Positions 28,149 through 57,099 of a stretch of 64,000 bases of DNA are shown here, in pieces. Within the stretch, counting starts at the first letter, position 1. Each line of letters opens with the position of its first letter. The DNA comes from Candidatus Aenigmatarchaeota archaeon (GTDB lineage Archaea; Aenigmatarchaeota; Aenigmatarchaeia; QMZP01; JAFGSV01): contig JAFGSV010000012.1 of assembly GCA_016934325.1 (NCBI GenBank), forward strand, positions 44,373 to 108,372, in the 5' to 3' direction. The position numbers were made by a program, and so were the translations under genes. The notes under the pieces are model-generated. The model saw only the letters and a list, made by a program, of their open reading frames with translations. It was not told the DNA's origin and did no database searches.

Positions 28149-30413
28149 TTGCCAATGGTGATTTTGATGGCGGCCGGAGACTACGAGTATGACGAGAATG
28201 AGCAGAGGCTGAAGATCAACTGCCTTGGGTGCATATACGGGGCCAGCATAGAGGACTTCGCGGGGTGCATGACGAGGGTGATCGACAAGATCCTGGAAGT
28301 CAAGAAGGTCAAGACTATAGTCCTGGCGAAGGACAGGGAGTACGAGTACGGCCCCGAGCAGACCGCGATACTCGTGGAGATAGCCCGGGTCATCGAGGAG
28401 GTCGTCAGGGAGAAGCTGATGACCAAGGTTCCTGTCAGGGACAGCCTGCAGAAGAGGATGCTGCCCGAATTCAACAGCAGGCTGCAGAGGATAATACTCA
28501 ACCTGCTCAGGAGCGACCCCATAGGCGCGTACGTCGAGCTCGTGCGGGAGATACGCCGCGTCAGGATAAAGATGAAGGAGACCCGCTACAGGGGCGCCTA
28601 CGACTTCTACAGGGATTTCGAGAGGGACGTCCTCGGGGTGATAAAGGCCAAGCTCGAGAACACCCAGCTGATAAAGCTGGCCAGGCCCCACATGGCAGGC
28701 TACCACATCGGCGACAGGTCGCTCTACAGGGAGATATTCGTCCCGAGCATAAGGCCCAACTTCATGCTCACCAGGTACATGATAACGCCGCCCGAGAACG
28801 GGAAGTCCGTGGAGAGGTACAAGATCGGGGACATAGAGGTCGAGATATTCAAGCTGCCCGACAGCGCTTCGTATTTCTACTACGTGCTGCCCCCGGAGTT
28901 CACGCTTTCTGAGGAGAAGTACGCGGTGCTGGACGCCGCCAGGAGGTACATGGCCACCCACAAGCCAAAGTCGGCGGAGTTCGTCAAGACGGGGCGGATC
29001 AGGGAGGTGTTCTACAACATAGGCAAGGACATGATCCGGGAGGTCGCGGACCAGCAGGGGATAAACCTGACGAACAGCGACCTCGAGCAGCTCTCGGTCA
29101 TTCTGACGAGGTACACGGCCGGTATGGGTGTGCTCGAGATACTCCTCTCGGACGAGAAGATCCAGGACATCTACATCAACTCCCCTGTGGAGTCGCAGCC
29201 CATACTGGTCTTCCACAACGACTACGAGGAGTGCAGGACGAACCTCATACCCACCCAGGGCGACGCGGAATCGTGGGCGACGAGGCTCAGGCTGCAGTCG
29301 GGCAGGCCCCTCGACGAGGCGAACCCCGTTCTCGATACCGACATCGCGGTCCCGGGAGGGAAGGCGAGGTTCTGCGTGATCACCAACACCCTGTCCCCGC
29401 ACGGGCTTGGGTTCTCCATAAGGAGGCACAGGGACAAGCCCTGGACGCTGCCCCTTTTCATAAAGGCTAAGATGCTCGACCCACTCGGGGCGGGCCTGCT
29501 CTCATTCCTTATTGACGGCACGGCGAGCCTGCTGGTCGCGGGCGGCAGGGGGGCGGGAAAGACCTCGCTCCTGGCGTCGCTCATGCTGGAGATGCTTCCC
29601 AAGACGAGGATGGTCGTCATCGAGGACACGCTGGAGCTTCCCGTGGACCAGCTCAGGAGCCTGGAATACAACATTGAGAGCCTGAAGTCGAGGTCCGTCC
29701 TCACCATGATAGAGACGGAGATGGCCAGCGACGAGGCTCTTAGGACCGCGCTGAGGCTGGGGGACTCTGCTCTGATTCTGGGGGAGGTCAGGAGTACAGA
29801 AGCGAAAGCACTCTACGAGGCCATGCGGATCGGGGCGCTCTCGAACGTCGTGGTCGGGACCATCCACGGGGAATCGGCCTACGGGGTCTTCGACAGGGTC
29901 GTGAACGACCTGGGAGTCCCCATGACGTCGTTCAAGGCCACCGACATAATCCCCGTTTGCAAGACGCTAAGGTCGGCGGACGGACTGCACAGGTTCAGGA
30001 GGATGACGGAGATAACCGAGGTCAGGAAGAAATGGGACACCAACCCCGACAAGGAGGGCGGCTTCGTCAACCTGATGGAGTACTCCGCGAAGGAGGACAA
30101 GCTCAAGCCGACCGATACCCTGGTGAACGGGGAGTCGGAGACGATAAACAGGATCGCCAGCTACGTGAGGGAGTGGCACGGGGACTGGCAAACCGTATGG
30201 GAGAACATAAACCTGAGGGCCAAGGTGAAGAGCGCGATTGTCGACATGAGCATAAAGCTGCAGAGGCCTGAGCTGCTAGAGGCGGACTGGATCACCCGGT
30301 CGAACTCACATTTCCATATAATCTCAGAGAATATCATGAAGGAGACGGGCTCGGTCGATTCCAAGACAGTCTACAACGAGTGGCTCGCCTGGATGAAGCG
30401 AAGCCTCAGATGA
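28149..30413 (+). CDS. Type II/IV secretion-family ATPase (FlaI/VirB11/GspE superfamily), unusually long at 754 aa
   Basis: Walker A 'GGRGAGKTSLL', Asp box 'MVVIEDTLEL', Walker B 'DSALILGEVR', His box 'GTIHGES'. There is an ~430-aa N-terminal extension and an ~160-aa C-terminal extension. Confidence 0.85.
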   Translation: MPMVILMAAGDYEYDENEQRLKINCLGCIYGASIEDFAGCMTRVIDKILEVKKVKTIVLAKDREYEYGPEQTAILVEIARVIEEVVREKLMTKVPVRDSLQKRMLPEFNSRLQRIILNLLRSDPIGAYVELVREIRRVRIKMKETRYRGAYDFYRDFERDVLGVIKAKLENTQLIKLARPHMAGYHIGDRSLYREIFVPSIRPNFMLTRYMITPPENGKSVERYKIGDIEVEIFKLPDSASYFYYVLPPEFTLSEEKYAVLDAARRYMATHKPKSAEFVKTGRIREVFYNIGKDMIREVADQQGINLTNSDLEQLSVILTRYTAGMGVLEILLSDEKIQDIYINSPVESQPILVFHNDYEECRTNLIPTQGDAESWATRLRLQSGRPLDEANPVLDTDIAVPGGKARFCVITNTLSPHGLGFSIRRHRDKPWTLPLFIKAKMLDPLGAGLLSFLIDGTASLLVAGGRGAGKTSLLASLMLEMLPKTRMVVIEDTLELPVDQLRSLEYNIESLKSRSVLTMIETEMASDEALRTALRLGDSALILGEVRSTEAKALYEAMRIGALSNVVVGTIHGESAYGVFDRVVNDLGVPMTSFKATDIIPVCKTLRSADGLHRFRRMTEITEVRKKWDTNPDKEGGFVNLMEYSAKEDKLKPTDTLVNGESETINRIASYVREWHGDWQTVWENINLRAKVKSAIVDMSIKLQRPELLEADWITRSNSHFHIISENIMKETGSVDSKTVYNEWLAWMKRSLR

Positions 30414-32777: not shown

Positions 32778-35700
32778 ATGGGAATGAAATCCCAGATATC
32801 CTTTTTGTCAGGAACCCCGATGCAGCTGATCCTGGTCCTTATAGCGGCGATAGGATTCCTGGCATTCGTGACCCTTGGCGCAGGGAACATCACGCAGTTC
32901 TTGCGCGAGACGTGCGAGAAATACCCCGAACTGCCATTCTGTGGGGGGCTTGAAGCGGTCGAGGCTAGGGATTACCAGACCGCCAAGGCATCAACGGAAG
33001 CTCTGGTATGCGCAATAAATTCGGTTGCTCAGGGAAGCGAATGGCTAGGTGGCGGACAGATCGACTGTAATGAGTATTTCGGGAAATCTGGTCCAGTTGC
33101 CGTCCCAGACTCGGATTATGAGAGGATCGAAAAATCGATAAACGCCGGTCTGGGCGTGTTTGACGACGAAGGATGCAGGGACAGGTGCATCGAGGAATTG
33201 TGCCAGGGGATTCCGGGCTGCGAGGTTGAAAGCTCGACATACATTGAAACACTCAAGACGGTTGACGCCGGCCATGAAGGCGATGTCAATTATACCTCAA
33301 GGCGATGCGAATGCGTTGTAGGAATTTCCAATGACCCCAGAGTGAGTTGCGGACAAGAGGAAACAGAAAAATTCGAATACTATGCCGTTAGAGAAGCCGG
33401 GACCATCCTTGAGTGCGAATGCATTTACAGTGGAGGAAGTGAAAACATCATCAAATCAAAGGCCTTCGGCTTGACGAAGGAGCAGGCCGTGTATAACTGC
33501 CATGACTTAGCGAAAAGGGACGTCGAGATCCAGTGCGAAGAGATAAATATAGAGGATAGCCCTGGAGGAAATGCATGGTACCTCAGCATACAGGCCGATT
33601 CCGTAATATTAAAAGGGGAGATGAGGAGGGGTCTGTGCAAGCTGGACGGTGAAAGAGAGAAATTCCATGTATACGGATATGACGACACGAACGTATTTGC
33701 CCAATGCGATTATGACTATGACGCATCCAGATTCTCTATCAATCCCTGGCTGATAAACACCGCCGTCAGCAGGGAGGTTGTCAAATACGAGGATTTTACC
33801 GGCGAACTGATATTTTACAAGAAGGACTTCACGGGAAGGGTCCCCTATTACTATCAGGCAAATCAATTCGAATGCGCTTTGAGCAACTTCGAGTTACCGC
33901 AAGAGATTACTGATTGGGAAGAATGGGTGCCTTGGCACGGAGACCCCAGGTTTTTAATCTACTGGCAGAATTTCCCCGCCGAAGAAGACATGTGGACGAT
34001 GAAAACCAACTGGAAGTTATATGTTGTCTTAGGGATAATAAGCGTCTTGCCGGTCCTGAAATCCGCAAGGATAGTTGCTGGAACGGCTGCACGAGCGGTC
34101 TTGAGTAGAATTTTCAGTTCTCTTGGGAAGGAGGCCGCGGAGAATGTGATAAAAAAAGGCGTAACAACAAGTATGATAAAAAAGGCTTCTACGACGGCAG
34201 TGAAAAACATGATGAAAAAGGGGACTCTATCGAAAACGGTCGGTGGAGAAGTGTTAAGCAGACTTGGAAGGGCGAATATCAATAACGCCATGAAAGAAGC
34301 TGGTGGAGAATTGGCAGAGAGAATAGCAAGGACTTCTGTAGCACAGGCGCCCCAGATTGCTCAGGAATATGCGGTAGATGCCGCAGGAAGGGCACTGACG
34401 CAGGCGGGATTGTATGGCATACCCCAGGAAGCAGCTGAAAAGCTCATGAAAGAATCGGGAGAGGCCGCAAGCAGACAGGCATTGAAATATATGGGCGCAT
34501 ACGGAATGAGGGAACAGTTCGTCAAGCTAATAGGTGATAGGGTCGTGGGAAAAGAATTACCCTGGACAGCCTTGAAGTTTTCAACACTCGTAGGTGCCGC
34601 CAGGATAGCCGAGATAGCCGACAGTATGACACAAGCCAGATTTGAAGTTTTTCCGAACGAAATAGTGTTAAAAGAGGCCCTTGGAAGCCCGGATGAATTC
34701 GATCTCGTTGATGAAATGGATGGTTCACCGGTTCTCATTGTCGTTCCGAACAGGGAATCTAAGTATATATTGCCACAAGTTTTTGACACGGAGAAAACCT
34801 TCCATATGGCATCACCATGCTATCTCGAGTCAGTGACCGTTAGCGGGGTCGATGCCCGATGCTCCGAGTACACATACAACAGAGAAGAAGACGGCTCAAC
34901 TTTTACGAGTTGCGGCGGGGAAATCGAAATAACGGGCAAGGGAGAGCCGTGCGATATAAACCTCTATGGCATGAGCAATTTGGGCCCAATGGAATTCATC
35001 TACTACCTCCATGCCATACCGGACCCAATGTCAGTCATATACAATGATGAGAAAGCACTTGATGAAGGGAAGAATGCGTATGCACCGATTGAATACGAAG
35101 AAGATTGCCCGACGACAATACAATGCGGTAGCAATAACGTTTATTACCATTTTGATGGCACGGAATGGAAATGGAAATCTCCCAGCGCAAATATCGATGA
35201 TTACAGACCAGTGCAACAGGTTTCTGACACGGAATGGCAAAATCTTGAACAAAATTACGACTTCGAGACCGCACACTTCGATATTATGAACGGCTTGGCG
35301 GGCAAGAACTTCGAATCCGGTGTTTCCGTTATTCAATCAACCCTCAACAGCGACAAAGACACAAAAGGAGGCAAAACCAGTGACGACTATCTTATAATAC
35401 ACCAATTTAAGAAATCGCCGAGTGAAACGTCGCCTAGTGATAACTATAATAACCTGGCTGAAATAATGACAGAAGATGTCAGCATGAGCGCCGGTTATTA
35501 TATAATCCCATTCGCGGAAAGCACGCTTCTGTATTACAAACCGGAGCCCGAAACGCTCAAAATAGGTAAAGTCGAGGGAGATAAAATAACCACATACGAA
35601 CTCACGAAGGACAGCGAAAGTTACCTTCATAATGTGTACACGCCAGTGGATTTTGAAGACGTGGTTGACATTCAGAAGAGCAGCAGTACGAGATTGGGAG

Positions 35701-36239
35701 AAAGAACGGCTATTATCACAACTTTCAGGATTGATGTCCCTGACTGGTCAGACTCCTATGGCGGTGACATAACATGGGTCAATATAGAAATCAATAATCC
35801 GGACGAGAAAGCAATAGAGATAGAGCCTTCCAGCGTGAACGGCGGCATCTTCGCAACAATAACGCTTTCCGATGAAGGTGATAACGGCATACTCCATTCA
35901 ATCATAATCGAACAAGACGATAAGGCTAAAACGATGACAGATTTCAATTATGACATGGAGGGTTTTGATTACTACAACCTAAGGAACTGCATAAGCAAGG
36001 GCGTCATCGTTGAAATGGGTAAGAAGAAAGGCGACGCGACCAATTATTGCACGGGTGGCCTTTCTACAGGTAAAGCATGGCTTGAATATGGCGGTGACAT
36101 TGCACTTGTGGCAGGTGTGGTGGTCGGCACATGTTTAGGAGGATGGCCTGGCGCTGCGGTTGCTGCTGTTGGGGGTCTTATCGAAACGGGATCTGAATAC
36201 GCGAGCGAGAAAATGGGCGAATGGCCAAACTCCTGGTGA
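32778..36239 (+). CDS. Giant Cys-rich membrane protein (N-terminal hydrophobic anchor, internal hydrophobic segment, C-terminal Gly-rich TM)
   Basis: 1153 aa. N-terminus 'FLSGTPMQLILVLIAAIGFLAFV'. About 30 Cys in the first 400 aa. A K-rich middle region. C-terminal 'IALVAGVVVGTCLGGWPGAAVAAVGGLI'. Confidence 0.6.
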   Translation: MGMKSQISFLSGTPMQLILVLIAAIGFLAFVTLGAGNITQFLRETCEKYPELPFCGGLEAVEARDYQTAKASTEALVCAINSVAQGSEWLGGGQIDCNEYFGKSGPVAVPDSDYERIEKSINAGLGVFDDEGCRDRCIEELCQGIPGCEVESSTYIETLKTVDAGHEGDVNYTSRRCECVVGISNDPRVSCGQEETEKFEYYAVREAGTILECECIYSGGSENIIKSKAFGLTKEQAVYNCHDLAKRDVEIQCEEINIEDSPGGNAWYLSIQADSVILKGEMRRGLCKLDGEREKFHVYGYDDTNVFAQCDYDYDASRFSINPWLINTAVSREVVKYEDFTGELIFYKKDFTGRVPYYYQANQFECALSNFELPQEITDWEEWVPWHGDPRFLIYWQNFPAEEDMWTMKTNWKLYVVLGIISVLPVLKSARIVAGTAARAVLSRIFSSLGKEAAENVIKKGVTTSMIKKASTTAVKNMMKKGTLSKTVGGEVLSRLGRANINNAMKEAGGELAERIARTSVAQAPQIAQEYAVDAAGRALTQAGLYGIPQEAAEKLMKESGEAASRQALKYMGAYGMREQFVKLIGDRVVGKELPWTALKFSTLVGAARIAEIADSMTQARFEVFPNEIVLKEALGSPDEFDLVDEMDGSPVLIVVPNRESKYILPQVFDTEKTFHMASPCYLESVTVSGVDARCSEYTYNREEDGSTFTSCGGEIEITGKGEPCDINLYGMSNLGPMEFIYYLHAIPDPMSVIYNDEKALDEGKNAYAPIEYEEDCPTTIQCGSNNVYYHFDGTEWKWKSPSANIDDYRPVQQVSDTEWQNLEQNYDFETAHFDIMNGLAGKNFESGVSVIQSTLNSDKDTKGGKTSDDYLIIHQFKKSPSETSPSDNYNNLAEIMTEDVSMSAGYYIIPFAESTLLYYKPEPETLKIGKVEGDKITTYELTKDSESYLHNVYTPVDFEDVVDIQKSSSTRLGERTAIITTFRIDVPDWSDSYGGDITWVNIEINNPDEKAIEIEPSSVNGGIFATITLSDEGDNGILHSIIIEQDDKAKTMTDFNYDMEGFDYYNLRNCISKGVIVEMGKKKGDATNYCTGGLSTGKAWLEYGGDIALVAGVVVGTCLGGWPGAAVAAVGGLIETGSEYASEKMGEWPNSW

Positions 36240-36251: not shown

Positions 36252-36437
36252 ATGCAGTTTAAAAAATACAAGAGAAGAATATCCATGGAATTCACGATAA
36301 GGACGATAGTGGTGCTTACCCTTCTTCTCGTAGCCACGTTGGTCTTTGCGGCCGTGATGCTCGGGTGGGGCTCCGAGTCGAGCGAATGGCTCACCGCGGT
36401 AATGAGCCCATTCCAGAACCTCGTCCTGAGGAGATAG
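36252..36437 (+). CDS. Small pilin-like membrane protein
   Basis: 'KRRISMEFTIRTIVVLTLLLVATLVFAAV': basic N-terminus followed by a ~22-aa hydrophobic helix. Confidence 0.3.
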   Translation: MQFKKYKRRISMEFTIRTIVVLTLLLVATLVFAAVMLGWGSESSEWLTAVMSPFQNLVLRR

Positions 36438-36518
36438 CCCGGAAATCCAACCTTCACCACTTACAGGAACCCCTCTTTGGATAGCGAAACAGCGCAACAA
36501 GCATATTTTTAAGGGAGC

Positions 36519-36971
36519 TTGAACATAATTATAGTTATGAAAGGATTGTCTCTTACCTTGACTATAGTCATCGTAGCCATTGTTCTTCTGGTGACAGCGC
36601 TCGTCGTGATGACAATCTTCGGCGGACAGATTGCTCAGTTCATAGGCATTCTGAATCCCTGGTCTGAGGCCATGCTCAAGCAGAGCCTGTGCAACCAGAA
36701 ATGTGCAGCCTATTGCCAGGGGCATGTAGGCATTTCCGAACCGGTTTCATGGAATACGATTGGGGAAATCGATGCACAATCTGAGCCTAAGAATTGTGGA
36801 ACAATAATGCAGGACATCAGCGAAAACTGCGTCTGCAGAGGCATACCCGTCGCGGGAACCGGCAAAAGCGAGGGCCAATCTTGCAGCGGAACAACGGATA
36901 CCAGTTGCGCTTCGCCACTGACTTGCAAGCCGAAAACACAAGGTTCAACGGAATACACGTGCCAGAAATAA
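36519..36971 (+). CDS. Pilin-like protein with class III (prepilin) signal and a Cys-rich ectodomain
   Basis: 'MKG|LSLTLTIVIVAIVLLVTALVV' (K-G followed by a hydrophobic run). 14 Cys in the C-terminal ~95 aa. Confidence 0.55.
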   Translation: MNIIIVMKGLSLTLTIVIVAIVLLVTALVVMTIFGGQIAQFIGILNPWSEAMLKQSLCNQKCAAYCQGHVGISEPVSWNTIGEIDAQSEPKNCGTIMQDISENCVCRGIPVAGTGKSEGQSCSGTTDTSCASPLTCKPKTQGSTEYTCQK

Positions 36972-37048
36972 GCAAGAACATACTATTCCCTGGGCCAAGC
37001 ATTTCAGCAGCATTCGTTTTTTTTAATCAGCCCCGGCAATTATAATTC

Positions 37049-37177
37049 ATGAAGGGCGGATTCCCGGGAATGAATGCATGGCTATGGCTGATGCTTACCA
37101 TCATAGTGTGCGCCATTGCGATCTTCTGGGCAACCAGCAGGATTGGCCTTGTGGATTTCCCGAGCCTGCTGGGATGA
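37049..37177 (+). CDS. Mini membrane peptide, possible pilin-like (42 aa)
   Basis: 'MKG|GFPGMNAWLWLMLTIIVCAIAIF'. Below the ORF-track cutoff and translated manually. Confidence 0.25.
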   Translation: MKGGFPGMNAWLWLMLTIIVCAIAIFWATSRIGLVDFPSLLG

Positions 37178-37279
37178 TGAACCCCATGCGACCGAACCTA
37201 TTCTGCTCTTCTGTTCCATAGTCCGCTGAACCAAATTGAAATTCTTATTAAAATGGCGAAGGACATAGATTAATTAGGC

Positions 37280-37399
37280 ATGAAAAGGGTAAAGGGGCAG
37301 GTTTCGGAGATGGGATTCAGCATCGTGGAGATGCTGATAACGCTTGCGGTTATCGCGATAGTGATCGCGATAGTGTTGTGGCTGATAACCCCCAGTTAA
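37280..37399 (+). CDS. Mini-pilin with bacterial-style prepilin motif (39 aa)
   Basis: 'MKRVKGQVSEMG|FSIVEMLITLAVIAIVIAIV': G followed by F at +1 and E at +5, then a hydrophobic helix, as in type IVa prepilins. Confidence 0.45.
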   Translation: MKRVKGQVSEMGFSIVEMLITLAVIAIVIAIVLWLITPS

Positions 37400-37454
37400 A
37401 GGATTATCGTTCTTCCACACCCAAATTTAAGAGTCAACCAGCTAATTATTATAT

Positions 37455-38090
37455 ATGAGAAAGGGAGGAGGCATACTGCCCAAGCCGCTGCTTGCGGCAG
37501 CGATGCTTGCGCTTTTTGTTTTCGCGTTGGTCATGCTGTACTGGAGGCTGGAGCTCATCCTGACCAACCCGTGCTGGAGCGACGCGATGGAGAGGCTCAG
37601 GCCCATCGCGGAAAGCCCGTCAAGGGGCCTGTCAGCGACCATTATCCTTGACGGCGATTCCGAGACGGGGAACTGCCTGAGCAAGGTCGTGTTCACGCCG
37701 AGCCCTGATGCCTGTGAGGACGCGTGCGAGGATTACAAAGGCGATGAAGACCAGAAGCGGGCATGCCTGCAGAAATGCCAGGTCGAGCCAGGCGAATCGA
37801 AGAGCTTCGTAGTAGCCATTCCTGCCGTGAGGGAAGGTATACTGGGGAGCGGAAAGAAAGTGATTGACGCCGTTGCCAAGCGCAGCTTCTATTGGCTCTT
37901 CGACGGCAAGCCGATGGTATTTTCCCTGGAATGCGAGCTAGTCGATTTCGATGTACCAGCCAGAGAATGCACCCCCGAGGGCGACTCTTGGATATGCACG
38001 CCCGGTAATAAGAAGAGCCAGTACAATATCAGGGTCGTAAAAGACGGCGAAAGGACTTGCAGGATAGTCGAATCCACGGCCGTTTCGTAG
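37455..38090 (+). CDS. N-terminally anchored Cys-rich secreted, pilin-like protein
   Basis: 'MRKGG|GILPKPLLAAAMLALFVFALVML'. 16 Cys, including 'CEDACEDY' and 'CLQKCQ'. Confidence 0.5.
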   Translation: MRKGGGILPKPLLAAAMLALFVFALVMLYWRLELILTNPCWSDAMERLRPIAESPSRGLSATIILDGDSETGNCLSKVVFTPSPDACEDACEDYKGDEDQKRACLQKCQVEPGESKSFVVAIPAVREGILGSGKKVIDAVAKRSFYWLFDGKPMVFSLECELVDFDVPARECTPEGDSWICTPGNKKSQYNIRVVKDGERTCRIVESTAVS

Positions 38091-45617: not shown

Positions 45618-45988
45618 ACAATAAAGGTGCCGGGAAATCGAAAGCTCGGATAGCAAGGGAATTCCCCGAGAATTTCGTCATCGGCGGGTTGCTTGTGATG
45701 CTTGCGATATGGGTCGCCAGGGCCTCGACCCCGGCCATAGGCGGGATAATAGCGGCCGTGCCGATCAGGTATGCGGTCACATGGTCGATCGCGGCGGTAC
45801 GCCGGGGTAAGGAATTCGCGGAGGACATGGCGAGGGGCTCGGTCATCGGGATGCCCGGCAACATCACGTTCTCGTTAGCCTTGTTTGCCATGCTTTTGGT
45901 TTCAATCGATTTCCTGACGGCGTTCATCGTGTCCATACTGGCAGGAATAGCGGTGCTTGCCCTGTGCAAGTTTACCTTTCCAGAATGA
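45593..45988 (+). CDS. Small membrane protein (paired family, copy B)
   Basis: 'AIGGIIAAVPIRYAVTWSIAA' paralogous to copy A. Overlaps copy A by 25 nt. Confidence 0.45.
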   Translation: MHRSGDAMNNKGAGKSKARIAREFPENFVIGGLLVMLAIWVARASTPAIGGIIAAVPIRYAVTWSIAAVRRGKEFAEDMARGSVIGMPGNITFSLALFAMLLVSIDFLTAFIVSILAGIAVLALCKFTFPE

Positions 45989-48900
45989 AGTACTTCGGGT
46001 GCTCTACCTTCTTGGGTATCTTCTCTATCAGCATCTGGAACCTCTCCCCTATCCCAAGGATCTTGAGGTCCTTGGTGAGCCGCATGGCCCTCTCCAGCTT
46101 GTAGCCCTTGTCGGCATACACCTCGAACAGGATGTCGCCTTTCTTGACCCTGTCACCCATCTTCTTGTGCAGCAGTATCCCGGCACCCTTGTCCTTGGGG
46201 GTACCCGAGGCCCTCGCTATCTCGACGAGCGCACTGTTGTTGATCCATCCGACGGTGCCGTTCACCGTGGACTTGACATCCACGTTCTTCGACCCGATAG
46301 GCAGGTCGTCGGGCTTTATGCCCGGATCACCTCCCTGGGCTGCTATGATCTCCTTGAGCTTCTTGTAGGCCTTGCCGCTCCTGAGGAGCCTCATAGCCTC
46401 TTTGTTCCCCCCTCTGCCTAGCTTGAAATCCAAGAGAATCCCCGCCAGGTGCGTCACCTTGTCCACAAGGTCGCCAGGGCCCTTGCCGTTCATAAGCGTG
46501 CACAGGGCCTCCCTCGCCTCCAGGGCGGGACCGATCGCGAAACCGATCGGCTGCTCGCCGAAGGTCGATGCCCCCACGGTATTTATCTTCAGCATCTTCC
46601 CGAGCTCGATGAACCTCTCGGCAAGGCTCTCGGCCTCCTTCGTCGTCTTCACCTTGGCTTCCTCCCCTGTCGGGATGTCTATGACGAGGTATTTCGCGCC
46701 GACCGCCTTCTTCTTTGACATCACGCTCGGCAGCAGCAACGGGTCAATGGACAATGGATACTCTATCTTGATGAAGAGGTCGTCCGCCGGGGCCAGGTCC
46801 ACGGAGCCTCCCCATACGAGGCACCCGTTCGTCTTGTGGACCACCTTCTTGATCTCATCGAGCTCAAGCTCGACCGGCGCCAGGCATTCGAACCTGTCAG
46901 CGGTGCCTGCGGGGGACGTTATCGCCCTGCTCGATGTCTTGGGTATGGTAAGGCCCGCGGCTGCTATTATGGGGACGAGCACCATGGAAGTCTCATCCCC
47001 CGGGACCCCTCCTATACTGTTGTGTAAGAAAATCGGTCCATAACCACCAACGAAATTTTCATAACCTTCAACACAGAAATCGTAAACATATTCATGCCCT
47101 GCACAACTCACTTCTTCGATTGACTTGACAGCAAGAAATCCTAAATTTGAATATGCAATCCTTTTCGTTTCAGCCTCGCCCCCGTTTGGTACAAGGTCTA
47201 GAAGAGACCTAGCTTTATTAAAAGTAATATAACGGTTTCTTCTGAAACCCCTTCTGGTTTCATGGTCCCAAAAATCACAGCTACCGAACCTGTTTAGATT
47301 TGCCTGTTCTATGGGTATGAAATTGAGGAATGCTGCTGTATTCTTACCTCCATTCCCGAGCACGGGATTCGCTTGGGTATAAATGAAATTTACAGGTGCA
47401 GTTTCAGATTTATATCCGGATGGGAATTCCCTGAATCCGGCCTCCCTGTAGGAGGTGCTGTAAGAAATGCCGCACACGGATAAAAGGTACTGCAAACCTA
47501 TGGATAACTCCTTGCTTGCCGTATCTGATATGATTTCATAGTTCCTCCTGAAATAACCATCACCCTTGAAATAGCTCCTAAGGAACTCCAGTTGCAGTTT
47601 TCTTGGCAAGTTGAAAATCAGTTCTGGCACTTCCTTGAACCTCGCTCCGTGTTTGAGTTTGAAAACATTATCAAAGATTTTTGCCAAAAGCTTGTTATAT
47701 ACGTTCAAATGCACGGCTGTTTTATGGGGATGGGTTATAGTTGTTTCCAGACTGAAAACATTTCTCACACAATCTTTTATGTCTTTGATAATTTCCGTCT
47801 CCTTTGTCCCAAGAGAGAAATGGACGCCATTTTCATTGGTGTAGCCCTCAGCAATCCAGTAACCAAGGATTTTGACTAATGATTCCTTAACAGGAACAAA
47901 AATCGGAATCCCGTTTCCGTGTTTCAATTTGAGCTTGGCATTCGCTGGCAGACGGACCTTTTTCTTTCTGTAAACATTGAACGGGATTAAATCGTACATT
48001 CTTTCTCTAAATGGTATTATCCCTCGGTAACTTTCCGATACCCCTTTGATGAAAACATCTTCGGTCAATTCCGGCGGCAGTTTAAGCAACCCTCGAACTA
48101 AGTCTATTTTCTCAATATAGGCTCCCGATTCAGGTACTTCTCTCGGCACTACGACGAAATCACCAACCTTAAGATTCTTGGATGGTATCGATTTTATTTC
48201 ACCGTCTTTAAGCACGAAAAGGGAGTGGCAATGCGTGGTGACAACTTCTCTATTTCCGAGCAAAGTAATTTTATACAATTTTTTTGGTGCCGGATGCCTG
48301 TAAATCCCTGTAATGGGCTTGAAGGATATCTTGAGATTCCCGTCGAAACTCAAGGCCTCATAATCTGCATCTTCTGTTTCTATGTATTCGGCACGATTAC
48401 CAACCTTTTCTATTTTCTTGCAATTCATCTTAAAGAAATTATCAATAAACTCCCCTATTTTCACAAGCCTCCTTCTTCCCCCTTCCTTAATCATCACGGG
48501 AGTATCCCAGGTAACGGAATGCTTGTCATATACCACCTTCCTGCCGAGGTCCAGCTTCTTCCCCGTAATGGCCATCGCCCTGGAGAGGGCGGCTGCCTCC
48601 TTGGTTGTCATGCCGTGATAGTATAATGCCGTCACAAAGGCCGTCATCTCTATCTCCGACAGCTTCCTGTTTACCGTGTCCTTCACGATCTTGTAGATAT
48701 CGGAGTCCTTCAGCGCATTCCCGCTAAGCTTCTCCCTTATGTGTATCAGGGATTCGGGGGGTTCGGACGGGGAAATCTCAATCCTGTCCCCGCTGCCAGC
48801 TTCCATGTGCTCAGCTATCTCGCTATGGAGGCCTATCTGCCCGGGCTTGATGAAGCGGGTTGCGACATTGACGATGGCGGTCCCCTTCTTGCCGCGCAAG

Positions 48901-49013
48901 GAAAGCTCGACCCTGTCAAGGGGCCTGACATCGATATCCTCCGCATCCTCCTTGTTCAGGATTATGATGGGCTTATCCGCTTCCAGTCCAAGTAGCTTTG
49001 CCTTGAGCAGCAT
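45972..49013 (-). CDS. deoA: AMP phosphorylase (thymidine-phosphorylase family) interrupted by a 500-aa intein
   Basis: The N-terminal AMPpase-specific domain and C-terminal 'SIGGVPGDETSMVLVPIIAAAGLTIPKTSSRAITSPAGTADRFE...LVWGG' align to archaeal AMPpase. The extein junction 'YDKH|...|SIGGVPG' restores the 'DKHSIGGVPG' phosphate loop. Confidence 0.85.
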   Translation of the reverse strand: MLLKAKLLGLEADKPIIILNKEDAEDIDVRPLDRVELSLRGKKGTAIVNVATRFIKPGQIGLHSEIAEHMEAGSGDRIEISPSEPPESLIHIREKLSGNALKDSDIYKIVKDTVNRKLSEIEMTAFVTALYYHGMTTKEAAALSRAMAITGKKLDLGRKVVYDKHSVTWDTPVMIKEGGRRRLVKIGEFIDNFFKMNCKKIEKVGNRAEYIETEDADYEALSFDGNLKISFKPITGIYRHPAPKKLYKITLLGNREVVTTHCHSLFVLKDGEIKSIPSKNLKVGDFVVVPREVPESGAYIEKIDLVRGLLKLPPELTEDVFIKGVSESYRGIIPFRERMYDLIPFNVYRKKKVRLPANAKLKLKHGNGIPIFVPVKESLVKILGYWIAEGYTNENGVHFSLGTKETEIIKDIKDCVRNVFSLETTITHPHKTAVHLNVYNKLLAKIFDNVFKLKHGARFKEVPELIFNLPRKLQLEFLRSYFKGDGYFRRNYEIISDTASKELSIGLQYLLSVCGISYSTSYREAGFREFPSGYKSETAPVNFIYTQANPVLGNGGKNTAAFLNFIPIEQANLNRFGSCDFWDHETRRGFRRNRYITFNKARSLLDLVPNGGEAETKRIAYSNLGFLAVKSIEEVSCAGHEYVYDFCVEGYENFVGGYGPIFLHNSIGGVPGDETSMVLVPIIAAAGLTIPKTSSRAITSPAGTADRFECLAPVELELDEIKKVVHKTNGCLVWGGSVDLAPADDLFIKIEYPLSIDPLLLPSVMSKKKAVGAKYLVIDIPTGEEAKVKTTKEAESLAERFIELGKMLKINTVGASTFGEQPIGFAIGPALEAREALCTLMNGKGPGDLVDKVTHLAGILLDFKLGRGGNKEAMRLLRSGKAYKKLKEIIAAQGGDPGIKPDDLPIGSKNVDVKSTVNGTVGWINNSALVEIARASGTPKDKGAGILLHKKMGDRVKKGDILFEVYADKGYKLERAMRLTKDLKILGIGERFQMLIEKIPKKVEHPKYFILER
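47019..48518 (-). mobile_element. Intein with LAGLIDADG homing-endonuclease domain (in AMP phosphorylase)
   Basis: Starts 'SVTWDTPVMIKEGG' (block A with Ser1). LAGLIDADG-like 'KILGYWIAEGYT' and 'LRSYFKGDGYF'. Ends 'VGGYGPIFLHN' with +1 Ser. The segment is visibly AT-richer than the exteins. Confidence 0.75.
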
Positions 49014-49019
49014 AGAAAA

Positions 49020-50288
49020 TCATCGCCATTTCTTGAGTGCCAGCCTCAGCTCATCATTATCTTTGGCATGTTCCTTTAAATCAATTCCCAGCATGGCGGC
49101 ATCCACTGCCTGCCTGATCGCCATGGCACCGGACCGTGTCCCTTTCGGATGGCCGTGGCACCCGCCGCCGAACTGGCAGATGATGTCAGGGCCGAGTATC
49201 TCGACCAGCTTCGGTACGTGGCCGGGATGAAGCCCCCCTGAGCAGACGGCGAACACGGGCTTGATGCCCCTCCAGTCGTCGGACAGGACATGCCCGTGCT
49301 CCTTAATCACCCTGTGCTCGATCTCTTCGCCGATGTCGATTACGTCATGCTTGCTCCCATGCATCTTCCCGACCACCGTGCCTATGTGTATCTGGTCGAC
49401 GCCGATCAGCCTCGAGCACTCGGCCACCACGAGCATGGATATCCCGTGCATGGGGTTCCTGGTGAACGCCGCATGGCCTGCCCGGTGAGCGTGCAGGACG
49501 AGCTTGAGGTCCTCGTTCTCGTCCCTGAGCGTCTGCAGGCCCGACCAGCCTGCCGTCACGATGTCGACCATGATGTACTCCCCGCCGTGGTCCCTGACGA
49601 ACCTGGCCCTCTTCAGCATCTCCCTGCACTCCGCCGTTACGTTGGGCATGTACATCTTCCTGTCCCCCGTCTCACGCTCGGCCTTGTCCCGCAGCTTCAA
49701 TGTCTCAACGACCCTCTCCTCGAACCTGTTGAAGCCCATGCTCGACAGGTTCTCGTCATCCTTGACGATGTCAAGCCCCCCGCTCCATGCGTCGTAGGCC
49801 ACCATCGCGTGCTCGTGCTCGTCGAGGCCGACCTTAGGCTTGACGATCGTCCCTGTCAGCGGCCTCTTGCTGACGCGGAGCATGCGCCTGACCCCCGGGA
49901 TGCCGTGGAGCGGGCCCTTGAACGATTCCATCAGCTTCCGTGGCCAGTGGATAGATTCGAGCCTGAGGTTCCCGACCATCTTCATGCCGAAGATGTTGCC
50001 GGCTATCGAGCTTAGTATCTGGGGCATGTTGCCGGGCTCGAACAAATCTGCCGGATAGGCAATCTTCACCCACCTGCCCTTTATCTCGAACACCTTGGCG
50101 GCGATCCGCATTATGCTCGGCTTCATCGTCGCCACGTCGGTCCAGGTCCCGACGCTCGATTCGCTGGCCACGTGCTCTGCGGCCTGCCTGGCGGTGTAAC
50201 CATTGGCGGGCTCTAACGAGAATTCGCACACCATGTCCCTCTTCGACGGCTTGTAGCCGAGCTGCACGTAACCCATAAGTGTCACCAT
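49020..50288 (-). CDS. rbcL: Type III RuBisCO
   Basis: 'GGLDIVKDDE', 'KPKVGL', 422 aa. Adjacent to AMPpase, as in the archaeal AMP pathway. Confidence 0.9.
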   Translation of the reverse strand: MVTLMGYVQLGYKPSKRDMVCEFSLEPANGYTARQAAEHVASESSVGTWTDVATMKPSIMRIAAKVFEIKGRWVKIAYPADLFEPGNMPQILSSIAGNIFGMKMVGNLRLESIHWPRKLMESFKGPLHGIPGVRRMLRVSKRPLTGTIVKPKVGLDEHEHAMVAYDAWSGGLDIVKDDENLSSMGFNRFEERVVETLKLRDKAERETGDRKMYMPNVTAECREMLKRARFVRDHGGEYIMVDIVTAGWSGLQTLRDENEDLKLVLHAHRAGHAAFTRNPMHGISMLVVAECSRLIGVDQIHIGTVVGKMHGSKHDVIDIGEEIEHRVIKEHGHVLSDDWRGIKPVFAVCSGGLHPGHVPKLVEILGPDIICQFGGGCHGHPKGTRSGAMAIRQAVDAAMLGIDLKEHAKDNDELRLALKKWR

Positions 50289-50337
50289 TTTATTATGTTT
50301 TGATTATCTCTTATTATGCAGCAGATGAAATAAATAA

Positions 50338-50808
50338 CTAATCAGAGCTTGTCGCATATCTGTTTCCGGTTATGTGATAGAGCCTTTTCCCGGAACCTTT
50401 GGTTTTCGAATGCACGACCTTCCCTATGAAAACGGTATGGTCTCCCGTCTCAACGCTGTCGACAACCTCGCACTCCAGGAAGCCGATTGCCTGCTTTATC
50501 CTGGGGCAGTCGATCTTACCGCACTCCTCCTTGCCGAACCCGCTATGCTCGAATTTGTCGGCGTTCCTGCCTGAAACGGAACCGCAATGCTCCATTCCCT
50601 TCTTCTGTTCAGCCGGCATGAAATTCACGCAGAAATTGCCGGAATCCCTGATCATGTCATGGGAGAACCTGGTCTTGCCGATCGAGATAGCGTACAGGCG
50701 CGGATCGAACGACGTGGGCATGTGCCACGCGAGGGTTATGATGTTGTCCTTCCCCCTGTGCCTGCACGTGACGAGGATCACCTGCCTGGGTCCGTCAATC
50801 TCGGGCAT
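50338..50808 (-). CDS. Flavin reductase-like FMN-binding protein
   Basis: Split-barrel pattern 'VILVTCRHRGKDNIITLAW...SIG...GNFCVNF...DKF'. Confidence 0.55.
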   Translation of the reverse strand: MPEIDGPRQVILVTCRHRGKDNIITLAWHMPTSFDPRLYAISIGKTRFSHDMIRDSGNFCVNFMPAEQKKGMEHCGSVSGRNADKFEHSGFGKEECGKIDCPRIKQAIGFLECEVVDSVETGDHTVFIGKVVHSKTKGSGKRLYHITGNRYATSSD

Positions 50809-50842
50809 CCATTCACCTCAACTTGAAAAAGAAAAACCAGGC

Positions 50843-51670
50843 CTATCCGAGCCAGGGATAAGCCTTCCTGACCTCCTGGATGAAGACCTCCGGAGGGAAA
50901 ACACCGAGCTCCGATATGATGGCGGTAATCAGATCGGGATCGACCCTCTCGAAGGCCAGGTTCATAATCTTGACCCCGGCGGGGGCGCCCGGCCAGACCT
51001 CCTTGGGGTCCCTTATCTCAATCGGCTCCTTGTTGCCGAATACGGTGGTTGCGTCGTACTTCCAGCTGTCCGTGCAGCAGTAGCAGCCGGTGTCGTATTT
51101 GTTCGCGATCTCGGCCATCATCTCCGTGCCTATCTTGTTCACGACCTTGCACTCGCTCGTAATGGCATCCGCCCCGAACAGGAACAGATCGCTATCCTTC
51201 AACGCTATCCTGGCCCCCGAATCAACGAACATAGTCACGGGTATTCCCAGCCTCTTCAGCTCCTTCGCAGTCTTCCTTCCCTGCAGCAGGGGCCTGGTCT
51301 CGGTGCAGTAGACCTCGTACCTCTTACCGTCGAGCTTCGCCCTCCTCAGGACATCCATGACGTTCGATGAGTGGCAGTGCGTGAAAACGGTCATGCCGTC
51401 ATCGATCTTCTTCGCGCCGTACTCTCCTATCTTCTTGTCAGAGTCGGTGAAGTGCTTCAGGGCAACGGGGCCGAGCTTCTTCGGGTCGGGCTTCACGAAA
51501 CCGATCGCGTTCCTCATGCAAGGCTCGGTCGGCCTCAGGGAAATCAGCTTCTTTATCGAGCGGGCGTCGTTTCTCAACATCAGGGCCCTGACGGCGGCTT
51601 TAGCGACGTTCTCCGCCCCTTGGATCTCTACCTTCTTGATCTTCCTGCATATCTCGTCAAACTTGTCCAT
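50843..51670 (-). CDS. Ribose-1,5-bisphosphate isomerase (eIF2B-like e2b2 family)
   Basis: eIF2B alpha/beta/delta fold ('VFTHCHSSNVMDVL', 'GADAITSECKVVNKIGT'). In the same strand block as rbcL and AMPpase. Confidence 0.7.
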   Translation of the reverse strand: MDKFDEICRKIKKVEIQGAENVAKAAVRALMLRNDARSIKKLISLRPTEPCMRNAIGFVKPDPKKLGPVALKHFTDSDKKIGEYGAKKIDDGMTVFTHCHSSNVMDVLRRAKLDGKRYEVYCTETRPLLQGRKTAKELKRLGIPVTMFVDSGARIALKDSDLFLFGADAITSECKVVNKIGTEMMAEIANKYDTGCYCCTDSWKYDATTVFGNKEPIEIRDPKEVWPGAPAGVKIMNLAFERVDPDLITAIISELGVFPPEVFIQEVRKAYPWLG

Positions 51671-51749: not shown

Positions 51750-51869
51750 GCGGAGATGGCCGAATGGCTCAGGCGATCGGCTGCAGGCGGTGTGGCAAGG
51801 CTTCTGCTCGTTCCGAAGCCGATGACCGATAGACACCGGTTCATGGGGGTTCAATTCCCCCTCTCCGCT
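51750..51869 (+). tRNA. Intron-containing tRNA (120 nt); isotype unresolved (Cys-GCA if spliced at canonical 37/38, or a class II Ser-like tRNA)
   Basis: Acceptor GCGGAGA pairs with TCTCCGC. D-arm GCC/GGC with a GG loop. T-arm GGGGG-TTCAATT-CCCCC. A 7-bp helix ATCGGCT/AGCCGAT encloses a ~31-34-nt insert. A U-tract follows the 3' end. Confidence 0.6.
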
Positions 51870-55284: not shown

Positions 55285-56160
55285 ATGCCCTCCCTGTACG
55301 AGAGAATGGCGAAGGCGTCTTTTGGCTGGCTGGCTGACAAAACGGTCACGAACTTCGAGCCGCTAAAGCCATACCTCAAGGGCGCCAGGATCAAGATGCT
55401 GATCAAGGCATGGGTCGGTGTCATATACCTGAGCTCCTTGATCGCTTTCTTCGCTTCGCTCGCGGCCGTCGTTATCCTTGGGATGCTTTATGACATCTAC
55501 TACCTGATATACCTGATCATGCTGGTCTTCATCCCCATACTGGGCGCATCCTTCACGTTCCTGACGCTCTACGTGTATCCGATGCAGAAGGCCAAGAGCA
55601 GGGCGAAATCCATCGAGAACAACCTGCCCTTCGCCGTGACCCACATGTCTGCGATAGCCTCATCCGGCATCCCGCCAGAGTTCATGTTCAGCCTGATAGG
55701 GGGCTTCAGGGAGTACGGGGAGATATCGGAGGAGGCGAACATGATAGTCAGGAACATAAGGACCTTCGGCTCCTCGAGCATCGCCGCCATGAAGAACGTC
55801 GCCAACCAGACCCCGAGCAAGGATCTGAAGGAGATATTGATGGGCATAAGCTCGACGATCGAGACTGGAGGGAACCTCACGGCCTACCTCAGGGAGATGT
55901 CGGAGAAGGCGCTGTTCGACTACAGGATAAAGAGGGAGAAGTACATCAAGACGCTTTCGACATACGCCGACATCTACACGGCGCTGCTCGTGGCGGCCCC
56001 CCTGTTCCTGCTGTCCACCATGGCAATAATGAGCATAATCGGAGGGGACATAATGGGACTGACGACGGGGCAGATAGTCACCCTTATGACCTGGCTGCTC
56101 CTGCCGGTGATGAACACGGCGTTCCTCGCCTTCATCCACATAACGTATCCGGGTGTTTAG
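55285..56160 (+). CDS. TadB-like platform protein (single T2SSF domain)
   Basis: TM-TM-helical cytoplasmic domain-TM. The first of two adjacent half-size FlaJ-like genes. Confidence 0.6.
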   Translation: MPSLYERMAKASFGWLADKTVTNFEPLKPYLKGARIKMLIKAWVGVIYLSSLIAFFASLAAVVILGMLYDIYYLIYLIMLVFIPILGASFTFLTLYVYPMQKAKSRAKSIENNLPFAVTHMSAIASSGIPPEFMFSLIGGFREYGEISEEANMIVRNIRTFGSSSIAAMKNVANQTPSKDLKEILMGISSTIETGGNLTAYLREMSEKALFDYRIKREKYIKTLSTYADIYTALLVAAPLFLLSTMAIMSIIGGDIMGLTTGQIVTLMTWLLLPVMNTAFLAFIHITYPGV

Positions 56161-57024
56161 ATGGAGATAAAGAGGTATTACGGGGAGATACTGTCGATAA
56201 TCGCAGGCGTGCTTATCATCATGGGGAACATCTTCGTTTTCCCGACGCTCATACCGCCCGAAATATTCACGGTCGTCGAGCCCCTGATAAACATGCTGGG
56301 GGCCCTGATCGCCATAGTCCCGCCGGTTCTCATTTTCTACACGAGGTACAAGGAGAGCAAGGAGGTAGAGGCGCAGTTCACGATATTCATCACGGACTTC
56401 ACGGAGGCCATAGATTCGGGAATGACCTTGCCCATGGCGCTCAGGTTCTGCGGCAAGAAGAGCTATGGGGTCCTGACGCCCAGCATCAGGTCGATAACGG
56501 CGCAGGTCGACTGGGGCATCCCCTTCAGGGAAGCGCTGAAGATGTTCAGCCACAAGGTGGGCTCCATTACCGTGAGGAGGGCGATCACCACGATAATAGA
56601 GACCTACAAGGTGGGAGGGAAGATATCGGACACCCTGAAGGCCGTGGGCGAGAGCCTGATAGAGATAAACAAGATCAAGGCCGAGAGGTCCGTGTCCGTG
56701 CAGTCCCAGATACTGACGTCCTATCTGATATTCTTCGTCTTCATCTTCATCCTCGTCATCCTGCAGAGCTTCCTCATACCCGCCCTCACTCCCCAGACCG
56801 ACGTCGCAGGCATAACGTCGATGTCGGGAGGGGCCGTGCCCGAGATGTTCCCTCCCGAGATATTCGTGAACTTCATAGTTGTCCAGGGATTCTTCGCCGG
56901 GCTGGCCACCGGGAAGATGGCCGAGGGGTCCGTCGTGGCGGGGGTGAAGCACTCCCTCGTGCTCATAGTCATCGGTTACAGCATATTCAGCATAGCTGGC
57001 CATTTCCAGATAAGCTTCTTCTAG
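56161..57024 (+). CDS. TadC-like platform protein (single T2SSF domain)
   Basis: Same architecture. Its start abuts the stop of the previous gene. Confidence 0.6.
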   Translation: MEIKRYYGEILSIIAGVLIIMGNIFVFPTLIPPEIFTVVEPLINMLGALIAIVPPVLIFYTRYKESKEVEAQFTIFITDFTEAIDSGMTLPMALRFCGKKSYGVLTPSIRSITAQVDWGIPFREALKMFSHKVGSITVRRAITTIIETYKVGGKISDTLKAVGESLIEINKIKAERSVSVQSQILTSYLIFFVFIFILVILQSFLIPALTPQTDVAGITSMSGGAVPEMFPPEIFVNFIVVQGFFAGLATGKMAEGSVVAGVKHSLVLIVIGYSIFSIAGHFQISFF

Positions 57025-57099
57025 GAAAGGCCGTTTCCGGGAAGAAGAGAACCATATTTAAGCTGCTGCGGGGAAATAATAATCATAGGCTGATGCGTC

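Follow-up and report, generated by a model that had tools for sequence, protein, structure and literature searches.

The window (the whole stretch of DNA that was analysed, 64,000 nucleotides) contains a co-oriented gene array in a MAG of Candidatus Aenigmarchaeota (DPANN), and features of this array are listed in Table 1. The secretion ATPase was 100% identical to an NCBI protein from Ca. Aenigmarchaeota (P0007), and its NCBIfam matches to FlaI and TadA were weak and below their cutoffs. The polytopic protein in the FlaJ/TadC position adjoined the ATPase in 55 loci, and the 1153-aa protein had partial tblastn matches in some related loci at 33-43% identity. The N-terminus of p150 was nearly invariant in four loci (L015-L018). 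A single-sequence AlphaFold model of this protein consisted of a long helix (residues 4-64) and a small beta region with a pLDDT of 66, and Foldseek comparison of the model with the PDB gave no significant match (weak, cystine-knot-like ones had E values of at least 0.2), so the pilin-likeness of p150 comes from its N-terminus and long helix only. Its neighbor p42 was 86% identical to the N-terminus of a 158-aa gene in L002, and the homologs in L015 and L017 were 217 aa long. Besides the mini-pilin, which is the subject of this work, nine other genes of the array encoded N-terminal transmembrane helices, and none of them belonged to a Pfam or NCBIfam family; this included p146, p279, p168 and p378, which gave no match in either database. 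The placement of the mini-pilin inside a pilin-like gene array, proposed earlier from the letters of the DNA, was thus borne out by the co-oriented genes with N-terminal helices downstream of a FlaI-like ATPase. Such DPANN loci have been interpreted by Makarova et al. as type IV pilus systems with unrecognizably divergent pilins (PMC6393860).

Table 1. Genes, signals and protein segments of the pilus locus, with positions in the window (the arrow marks a cleavage site)
Feature	Position	Strand	Basis or remark
FlaI/VirB11-type secretion ATPase, 748 aa	28167..30413	+	PF00437 T2SSE
Polytopic membrane protein in FlaJ/TadC position, 703 aa	30502..32613	+	Gene call on L001; no Pfam match
1153-aa protein with N-terminal transmembrane helix; candidate adhesin or large pilin	32778..36239	+	ORF; no Pfam match
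p61, conserved small transmembrane protein, 61 aa	36252..36437	+	ORF, synteny
p150, candidate major pilin, 144 aa	36537..36971	+	Canonical archaeal class III start MKG↓LSLTLTIVIV
p42, truncated remnant of a 158-217-aa pilin-like gene	37049..37177	+	Homology to L002, L015/L017
TATA-like box TTATTAAAAT	37245..37254	+	26-35 nt 5' of ATG; putative archaeal promoter
A/T-rich stretch ATTAATTA	37269..37276	+	Directly 5' of the start codon
Mini-pilin CDS	37280..37399	+	39 codons and TAA; translation MKRVKGQVSEMGFSIVEMLITLAVIAIVIAIVLWLITPS
Leader, residues 1-12 (MKRVKGQVSEMG), polar and basic	37280..37315	+	Contains both candidate cleavage sites
Candidate cleavage site after G6	codon 37295-37297	+	In the mini-pilin leader
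Candidate cleavage site after G12	codon 37313-37315	+	End of the mini-pilin leader
Hydrophobic H-domain (alpha1N-like helix), residues 13-37	37316..37390	+	F13 is +1; TIGR02532 aligns to residues 12-33
E17 (+5)	codon 37328-37330	+	Inside the mini-pilin H-domain
p211	37455..38090	+	Always directly 3' of the mini-pilin, 30-57 nt gap
p146, p279, p168, p378, N-terminal transmembrane helices	38107..41104	+	End of the array; ORFs, synteny L002, L015-L018

A second pilus system was also found in the window, with an intein-bearing ATPase, two T2SSF genes and two pilins. These pilins (MARKA↓ISPII... and ...KSKG↓ISPLV...) scored 31.2 and 23.2 with the archaeal profile TIGR02537 (arch_flag_Nterm), which has a cutoff of 20, and both lacked Glu at +5. 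The window also encodes Alba, enolase, form III RuBisCO, TFB and RadA. ARAGORN reported no tRNA in the window, and Rfam one intron-containing tRNA.

The mini-pilin ORF lay where the sequence-only reading had placed it, and the translation agreed exactly. Because an in-frame TAA (37271-37273) is located two codons 5' of the ATG at 37280, this ATG is the earliest possible start. Mean Kyte-Doolittle hydropathy was -0.72 for residues 1-12 and 2.68 for residues 13-37. E17 was followed by 20 residues without a charge, and the protein ended at residue 39. AlphaFold, used with an alignment of seven variants, predicted one continuous helix covering residues 2-36 (pLDDT 87). For a pattern composed of an upstream Met, G[FYW]xxxE and 16 mostly hydrophobic residues, the real window had a single occurrence, and of 200 shuffles that preserved dinucleotides only one contained it (mean 0.005). 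Thus, the motif is no chance feature of the window.

Word-indexed, phmmer and profile searches (5.8 billion proteins) recovered six clusters of proteins of 37-41 aa (P0001, P0002, P0003, P0127, P0006 and P0128) and no other protein. For the word-indexed search, the 39-aa query was padded with two non-native in-frame residues. An exhaustive phmmer search against 1.84 billion representatives found two of these clusters only and the profile search added two more, which indicates that the family is narrow. P0003 was present on 21 contigs and was located directly 5' of a p211 homolog on every one of them that reached downstream; where the contigs were long enough, the same gene order continued through Alba, enolase and iPGM. 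P0006 and P0128 occupied the same slot, also directly 5' of a p211 homolog. We found that an HMM of five variants, searched against six-frame ORFs of the loci of 80 Aenigmarchaeota species, recovered the gene only in L002, L012, L015 and L017. Additional HMM matches in these loci were rejected because they corresponded to the antisense strand of the mini-pilin gene itself. A metagenome scan with the family alignment yielded no new mini-pilin, and every new match was an ordinary bacterial pilin of 155-355 aa. The family therefore appears, as judged by these searches, to be confined to one Aenigmarchaeota sub-clade. Adjacency of the mini-pilin and p211 was observed in the window, L002-L010, L012, L015 and L017, and adjacency of p211 to other small ORFs in the same slot was seen in L016 and L018.

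Comparison of the mini-pilin gene in the window with that of L002 revealed 21 nucleotide differences, distributed as 4, 3 and 14 over codon positions 1, 2 and 3, with a dN/dS of 0.09. Relative to L012, synonymous sites were saturated (pS 0.78) and pN was 0.17; a length of 37-41 codons was kept even at such saturation. Changes in the leader codons relative to L002 were either synonymous (3) or conservative (2). The synonymous changes indicate that the leader is translated and that the protein starts at M1 and not at M11. An in-register antisense ORF (37274-37420) was considered as the coding frame and was found to be incompatible with the 4/3/14 pattern. At the protein level, identity between the window and L002 was 84% for the mini-pilin, 63% for p211, 53% for p279 and 50% for p378; the mini-pilin is better conserved than most neighboring genes. 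Its GC3 (0.70) was within the values of the neighboring pilin-like genes (0.55-0.74). An ORF of this size could in principle be a spurious one in an intergenic spacer, since it is very short and hydrophobicity is easily obtained from a T-rich second codon position. However, divergence was biased to third positions, dN/dS was low, the length was kept, position and promoter were conserved, and the shuffle expectation was negligible. We consider a spurious ORF extremely improbable, and the dN/dS value together with the third-position bias effectively refutes it. The mini-pilin is a genuine, conserved gene under strong purifying selection, and its short form is old and conserved. The sequence-only reading had named a lack of conservation in relatives, together with a missing expression signal, as what would speak against it, and orthologs under selection were found instead; the homologs next to FlaI-like ATPases of related archaea, for which it had proposed a search, were found in the same slot of ATPase loci.

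The expectation that automated annotation would miss such a short gene proved wrong. The exact protein is present in NCBI nr as GenBank MBN2330733.1, with the name [quoted passage not shown] (MAG, Candidatus), and the ORF was called by gene callers on Logan, JGI and ENA contigs. In JGI, P0002 (90% identical) carries the same prepilin-type name. The source of this name is the NCBIfam profile TIGR02532 (IV_pilin_GFxxxE).

Inspection by hand located A/T boxes upstream of the array genes. The TATA-like box of the mini-pilin was identical in L002, and equivalent A/T boxes were found at the same distance in L012, L015, L017 and L016, as well as 5' of p150, p42 and p211. Similarly, an AATTAT-type element precedes the ATG of p150, p42 and p211 and that of mini-pilin orthologs. 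This arrangement suggests that the mini-pilin and its neighbors may be expressed as independent leaderless or near-leaderless archaeal transcripts. A scan for sigma-70 promoters and intrinsic terminators, which does not apply to archaea, gave nothing.

With regard to the pilin signature, the mini-pilin of the window scored 21.5 bits with TIGR02532 (cutoff 16.3 bits), and values for other family members were 22.6 (P0003), 16.0 (P0128) and 12.2 (P0006). The Pfam family PF07963 (N_methyl) scored 20.1, just below its cutoff of 21.2, and TIGR02537 did not match the mini-pilin at E values up to 0.1. None of the other tested array proteins with N-terminal helices matched TIGR02532 at E up to 0.1, and so the match is not generic to hydrophobic helices. 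In the alignment of seven variants, M1, K5, M11, G12, E17, T21, I25 and A26 were invariant; position +1 was F in five variants, Y in one (P0006) and M in one (P0128), and +6 was M or L. The G↓FxxxE class III-type signature reported earlier was supported by the profile score and by G12 and E17; of the three residues then called invariant in bacterial type IVa pilins, Gly-1 and Glu+5 are invariant in the mini-pilin family and Phe+1 is not. Comparison with bacterial PilA, which had been suggested as a check, agreed with the signature: the best PDB sequence matches, with E values of 0.09-0.24, were bacterial PilA (9laa) and Geobacter PilA-N, whose G-1 was aligned with G12. The bacterial pilins and pseudopilins that the metagenome scan yielded (155-355 aa) start with G↓FTLVEMLITLAIIG..., and the mature end of the mini-pilin would read G↓FSIVEMLITLAVIA; when a bacterial pilin of L099 was compared with this mature end by eye, 10 of 14 residues were identical. 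The protein has Gly at -1 before about 20 uncharged residues with Glu at +5, exceeds the curated TIGR02532 cutoff, and its gene shares a conserved synteny with those of the type IV filament ATPase and the platform protein. A complete pilin has in addition either an alpha1 helix of about 50 residues (alpha1N and alpha1C) on a C-terminal globular beta domain or at least a solvent-exposed C-terminal part, and the mini-pilin has neither. By signature and profile score it qualifies as a bacterial-type prepilin N-terminal domain, but by structure it is no complete pilin.

The slot 5' of p211 is filled differently in sister lineages. L016 and L018 have small transmembrane ORFs with KG and without G↓xxxxE: the ORF of L016 (MHKGDTLPTMFLMIAG...) starts with MHKG↓DTLPTMFLMIAG..., and that of L018 (MKKVKGMMPTTWMLG...) with MKKVKG↓MMPTTWMLG.... 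Neither ORF scored with TIGR02532 or had detectable similarity to the mini-pilin, and BLASTP of the L016 ORF gave no alignment. The absence of G↓xxxxE from these ORFs implies that the pilin-like signature is not essential to the occupant of the slot.

It had been stated that archaeal class III signals do not normally keep Glu+5. This holds as a tendency and has exceptions. Among 146 class III-like N-termini from non-redundant Aenigmarchaeota loci that were fetched through the ATPase, 14 had E or D at +5. Examples include full-length proteins of 107-134 aa with canonical KG↓ sites, KG↓MMAIE(V/L)MVII, in L052, L053 and L055, and a 60-aa Flp-like protein, MKG↓ISTIDY..., in L088; these proteins did not score with TIGR02532. 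In addition, a subset of archaeal pilins, EppA substrates among them, keep Glu+5 (PMC4371748). Thus, the mini-pilin is distinctive for its closeness to the bacterial consensus and not for Glu+5. Its size also sets it apart. Strict class III-like ORFs 3' of the ATPase in the fetched loci were 49-614 aa long; 10 of 38 had at most 70 aa and none had 45 aa or fewer. The predicted mature mini-pilin has 27 residues (cut at G12) or 33 residues (cut at G6), which is below all published sizes cited here: 42-297 aa for mature T4a major pilins and 61 aa for mature Geobacter PilA-N (PMC11046646), and, for prepilins of the Flp type, a minimum of about 44 aa in Caulobacter (PMC4471445). The papers that we consulted described no functional pilin whose mature part has only 27-33 residues, and when the literature was searched for pilins of bacterial type in DPANN, nothing was found.

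The leader contains a second, archaeal-type candidate cleavage site, K5-G6↓Q7-V8, which the sequence-only reading overlooked. This site fits the archaeal motif of FlaFind 1.2, [KRDE][GA][ALIFQMVED][ILMVTAS] (PMC4307647), whereas the G12 site (M-G-F-S) fails at -2, where Met is invariant; a charged -2 residue has been described as critical for archaeal prepilin peptidases, and class III cleavage normally occurs directly at the start of the H-domain (PMC4371748). The G12 site abuts the H-domain but has no charged residue at -2, and the KG↓Q site is followed by six polar residues (QVSEMG) before the H-domain begins. The archaeal-format site is thus misplaced with respect to the H-domain, and the bacterial-format site, although correctly placed, has an unsuitable residue at -2. 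KGQV was present in 5 of 7 variants, and the upstream site was KGMI in P0006 and KAII in P0128; the slot ORFs of L016 (KGDT) and L018 (KGMM) also fit the FlaFind motif, and apart from this site they retain nothing that resembles a class III signal. This observation suggests that the archaeal-type KG site is conserved more deeply than the G12 site. When about 40 proteins of the window, those of the array among them, were scanned with Pfam, no A24 prepilin peptidase was detected, and none was found when all fetched loci with their flanks were searched for the GxGDxK motif. Archaeal prepilin peptidases have no methyltransferase domain (PMC4371748).

Taken as a type IV prepilin, the mini-pilin would have kept little more than the class III signal: its basic leader of 12 residues ends in the boundary Gly, and the roughly 25 hydrophobic residues that follow are interrupted by Glu at +5 only. 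It would enter the membrane with a cytoplasmic N-terminus, and the prepilin peptidase of the cell would probably trim it, either at MG↓F to give a 27-mer (bacterial format) or at KG↓Q to give a 33-mer (archaeal-format site). The mature peptide may then pack through contacts of the alpha1N type with helices of other pilins and/or with the FlaI/FlaJ-like platform, and such a headless minor subunit might prime, anchor, terminate or tune pilus assembly. Apart from one Glu it has no polar or water-exposed surface, so that it cannot by itself make the water-exposed shaft of a filament and is improbable as shaft material. The reading that we favor, with about an even chance of being correct, is that the peptide functions inside the membrane, either as a minor pilin without a head or as a subunit for assembly. 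What speaks most for this reading, as opposed to a small membrane protein of a generic kind, is the invariant Glu, predicted to be intramembrane and at pilin spacing, together with the invariant Gly. A bolder version, in which a minimal pilin of 27-33 residues made of alpha1N only is cut by the peptidase at G↓FxxxE in spite of Met at -2 and is built into, or nucleates, a DPANN pilus, with a helix that may be of bacterial derivation, is in our opinion doubtful.

A competing explanation is that the protein is an unprocessed single-pass membrane protein, for example an accessory of the FlaJ-like platform or a membrane organizer, and that its G↓FxxxE is convergent. Any N-in signal-anchor consists of a basic N-terminus followed by a transmembrane helix, and the counterparts in L016 and L018 have just this architecture (M-basic-KG, 5-6 polar residues and a transmembrane helix, without G-1 and E+5). 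The locus contains other tiny transmembrane proteins (p61 and p42), Met at -2 is unfavorable for archaeal peptidases, and the TIGR02532 score decays across the family from 22.6 and 21.5 to 16.0 and 12.2 bits. On the other hand, all seven variants have both G12 and, at exactly the spacing of pilins, a charged Glu in a transmembrane helix, the match to the bacterial consensus spans about 14 residues and not 3, other tested helices of the array did not match TIGR02532, and the motif appeared in 1 of 200 shuffles. We regard an unprocessed protein as the less likely reading. A regulatory H-domain peptide, in which an unpolymerized pilin helix resident in the membrane would report on or modulate a FlaI/FlaJ-type motor and possibly mediate cross-talk of two pilus systems, appears quite improbable. 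This idea rests on analogy: a precedent exists in the H-domain of Haloferax (Esquivel and Pohlschroder 2014, as summarized in PMC10983859), the mini-pilin is essentially an H-domain alone, and the window has a second ATPase/T2SSF/pilin system. However, the window showed no genes of an archaellum, the effect in Haloferax belongs to full pilins with an H-domain common to six paralogs, and the H-domain of the mini-pilin resembles no other pilin in the window.

The origin of the gene is a separate matter, and a bacterial origin is compatible with the functional readings above. A bacterial type IV pilin or pseudopilin gene could have been acquired horizontally, and the mini-pilin would be its domesticated 5' part, kept because the helix fits the archaeal machinery. 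In favor of such an event, its mature N-terminus is close to the bacterial one and passes TIGR02532 and not TIGR02537, the Glu+5 pilins of other Aenigmarchaeota (KG↓MMAIELMVII) are unlike it and have no TIGR02532 match, the family is confined to one sub-clade, and the same locus offers an example of truncation to an N-terminal stub (p42, the counterparts of which have 158 aa in L002 but 217 aa in L015). However, the gene looks native in GC3 and in the layout of its promoter, an archaeal KG site is present in the leader, transfer can hardly be told from convergence with some 27 hydrophobic residues, and the more distant family members are less bacterial-like. Overall, we consider this origin plausible, though rather unlikely.

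Attachment of DPANN archaea to their hosts is thought to involve pili, and subunits of these loci are mostly uncharacterized (PMC6393860). The mini-pilin can be viewed as a natural experiment in which a pilin has been stripped to its class III signal helix and is maintained by strong purifying selection. Should the peptide be processed and active in assembly, it would define the minimal unit recognized by the type IV machinery; if the bolder, minimal-pilin version is true, it would set a new lower limit for pilin size, with the class III signal alone being a working subunit. It may also be used as a short synthetic substrate for studies on the specificity of archaeal prepilin peptidases, as it offers two competing sites, one archaeal and one bacterial in format. 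If it is not processed, it would be a warning that TIGR02532 can name small archaeal membrane peptides prepilins on motif alone.

Among known systems, bacterial type IV pilins and pseudopilins (PilA, GspG-K, ComGC) have G-1, F+1, E+5 and EMLITLAVIA-type hydrophobic residues in common with the mini-pilin, and in both cases the gene neighbors a secretion ATPase and a platform protein. The mini-pilin differs from them in that it has no alpha1C or globular domain and stops after the alpha1N helix, its host is an archaeon and its -2 residue is Met. In Flp pilins, the motif is G↓XXXXEY. The mini-pilin has no Tyr at +6, its mature part is much shorter and it has no polar C-terminal tail; the Flp family of Pfam did not match it at E values up to 0.1, and it does not qualify as a Flp/Tad pilin. 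The resemblance is that Flp/Tad (type IVb) pilins are also very short, have Glu+5 and are thought possibly to consist of alpha1N only (PMC4471445). A different parallel is seen in the EppA-dependent Epd pilins of Methanococcus maripaludis, which have the sites KG↓QV, KG↓QI and KG↓QL and keep Glu+5; KGQV at residues 5-8 of the mini-pilin is literally the site of EpdB and EpdC (PMC4371748). In contrast to Epd pilins, the acidic residue of the mini-pilin is at +4 from the KG↓Q site, the H-domain begins at +7, and Q7 is replaced by M in P0006 and by I in P0128. The H-domain of Haloferax volcanii PilA1-6 is described as itself functional, regulatory and membrane-resident (PMC10983859). That H-domain belongs to full-length pilins, whereas the mini-pilin is almost an H-domain alone, and the two are likened by function and not by sequence. 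Finally, Geobacter sulfurreducens PilA-N (geopilin domain 1) is a truncated pilin with little beyond the alpha1 helix and with an adjoining partner gene, and its structures 9egp and 7tgg were the second and third best PDB sequence matches of the mini-pilin. PilA-N retains alpha1C, and together with PilA-C (104 aa) it makes up a pilin of normal size (PMC11046646), whereas the mini-pilin has no amphipathic segment and its neighbor p211 has an N-terminal transmembrane helix of its own.

A TATA-like box lies ~25-35 nt upstream of each of four consecutive genes of the pilus array (p150, p42, the mini-pilin and p211), and an AATTAT-type stretch abuts the ATG in all four alike. This arrangement before every gene suggests that they would be individually promoted and expressed as a series of leaderless or near-leaderless transcripts, not as one operon. 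The p42 gene (MKGGFPGMNAWLWLMLTIIV...) amounts to no more than an N-terminal stub, and its full-length counterparts encode 158 aa in locus L002 and 217 aa in L015/L017. Its C-terminal domain is deleted in the window lineage, and the TATA-like box of the stub is retained despite this loss. Another array gene, p61, encodes a second conserved micro-protein. Its orthologues have a conserved Met-Glu as actual or possible start, without a basic leader (MEFTIRT, MEVTMGV, MEFTLRT or MEMTLKT); a transmembrane helix comes next, together with a W..S....P.Q motif that is likewise conserved.

In two sister lineages, L016 and L018, the slot directly upstream of the p211 homologue is held by small transmembrane ORFs (MHKGDTLPTMFLMIAGIILALVLG... 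and MKKVKGMMPTTWMLGMMIGL..., respectively) that look unrelated to the mini-pilin. Both retain the plan of basic-KG, 5-6 polar residues and helix, and G|xxxxE is absent from both; the L018 ORF is joined in frame with a p42-like stub starting MKG|FSLEM. An acidic +5 residue also occurs in class III-like proteins encoded by other Aenigmarchaeota pilus loci (L088, L052, L053 and L055), and none of these proteins obtained a score with TIGR02532, the bacterial IV_pilin_GFxxxE model.

Mobile-element genes were found in the locus of two L002-lineage population variants (L005 and L004), in which the mini-pilin and downstream genes are intact despite them. Several orthologues of the FlaI/VirB11-type locus ATPase in other Aenigmarchaeota (P0009, P0030, P0096, P0105 and others) are ~1260-1290 aa long and contain a LAGLIDADG-domain intein, whereas the window copy is intein-free.

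Coordinates of features in the window and in related loci
Feature	Location	Strand
p61	36252-36437	
p61 orthologues	L015 17329-17508; L016 16915-17070; L018 10989-11156	
Upstream region, p150	36476-36536	
Upstream region, p42	36988-37048	
p42 stub	37049-37177	
Full-length p42, L002	9396-9872	
Upstream region, mini-pilin	37219-37279	
Upstream region, p211	37394-37454	
Slot ORFs	L016 18222-18332; L018 within 11589-11942	
Flp-like, 60 aa, MKG|ISTIDYIYII (D+5, Y+6)	L088 14387-14569	
Cysteine-rich family, 107-134 aa, KG|MMAIE(V/L)MVII	L052 17276-17620; L053 17883-18206; L055 17942-18286	
rve integrase, immediately upstream of mini-pilin	L005 119-988	
DDE transposase, between Alba and enolase	L004 4920-5969	
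Locus ATPase	28167-30413	
AMP phosphorylase-like Glycos_transf_3, intein-split (LAGLIDADG domain in intein)	45972-49013	-
Form III-type RuBisCO large subunit	49020-50288	-
IF-2B family (ribose-1,5-bisphosphate isomerase-like)	50843-51670	-
tRNA, 120 nt	51750-51869	+
T2SSF (TadB/C-like)	55285-56160	+
T2SSF (TadB/C-like)	56161-57024	+
Pilin MARKA|ISPIIAIV	57100-57528	
Pilin MTRKSKG|ISPLVAVIM	57576-58010	
T2SSE ATPase, intein-interrupted (LAGLIDADG domain in intein)	58043-61147	-

Elsewhere in the window, the archaeal AMP-salvage trio of AMP phosphorylase-like protein, form III-type RuBisCO large subunit and IF-2B family protein is clustered at 45972-51670. The tRNA was detected with Rfam at 45 bits and presumably contains an intron; ARAGORN in default bacterial mode reported zero tRNA over the whole window. 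A separate, second type IV pilus-like system occupies 55285-61147, with two T2SSF genes, a T2SSE ATPase and two classical archaeal pilins, which match UpsA weakly and pass TIGR02537, the archaeal arch_flag_Nterm model.
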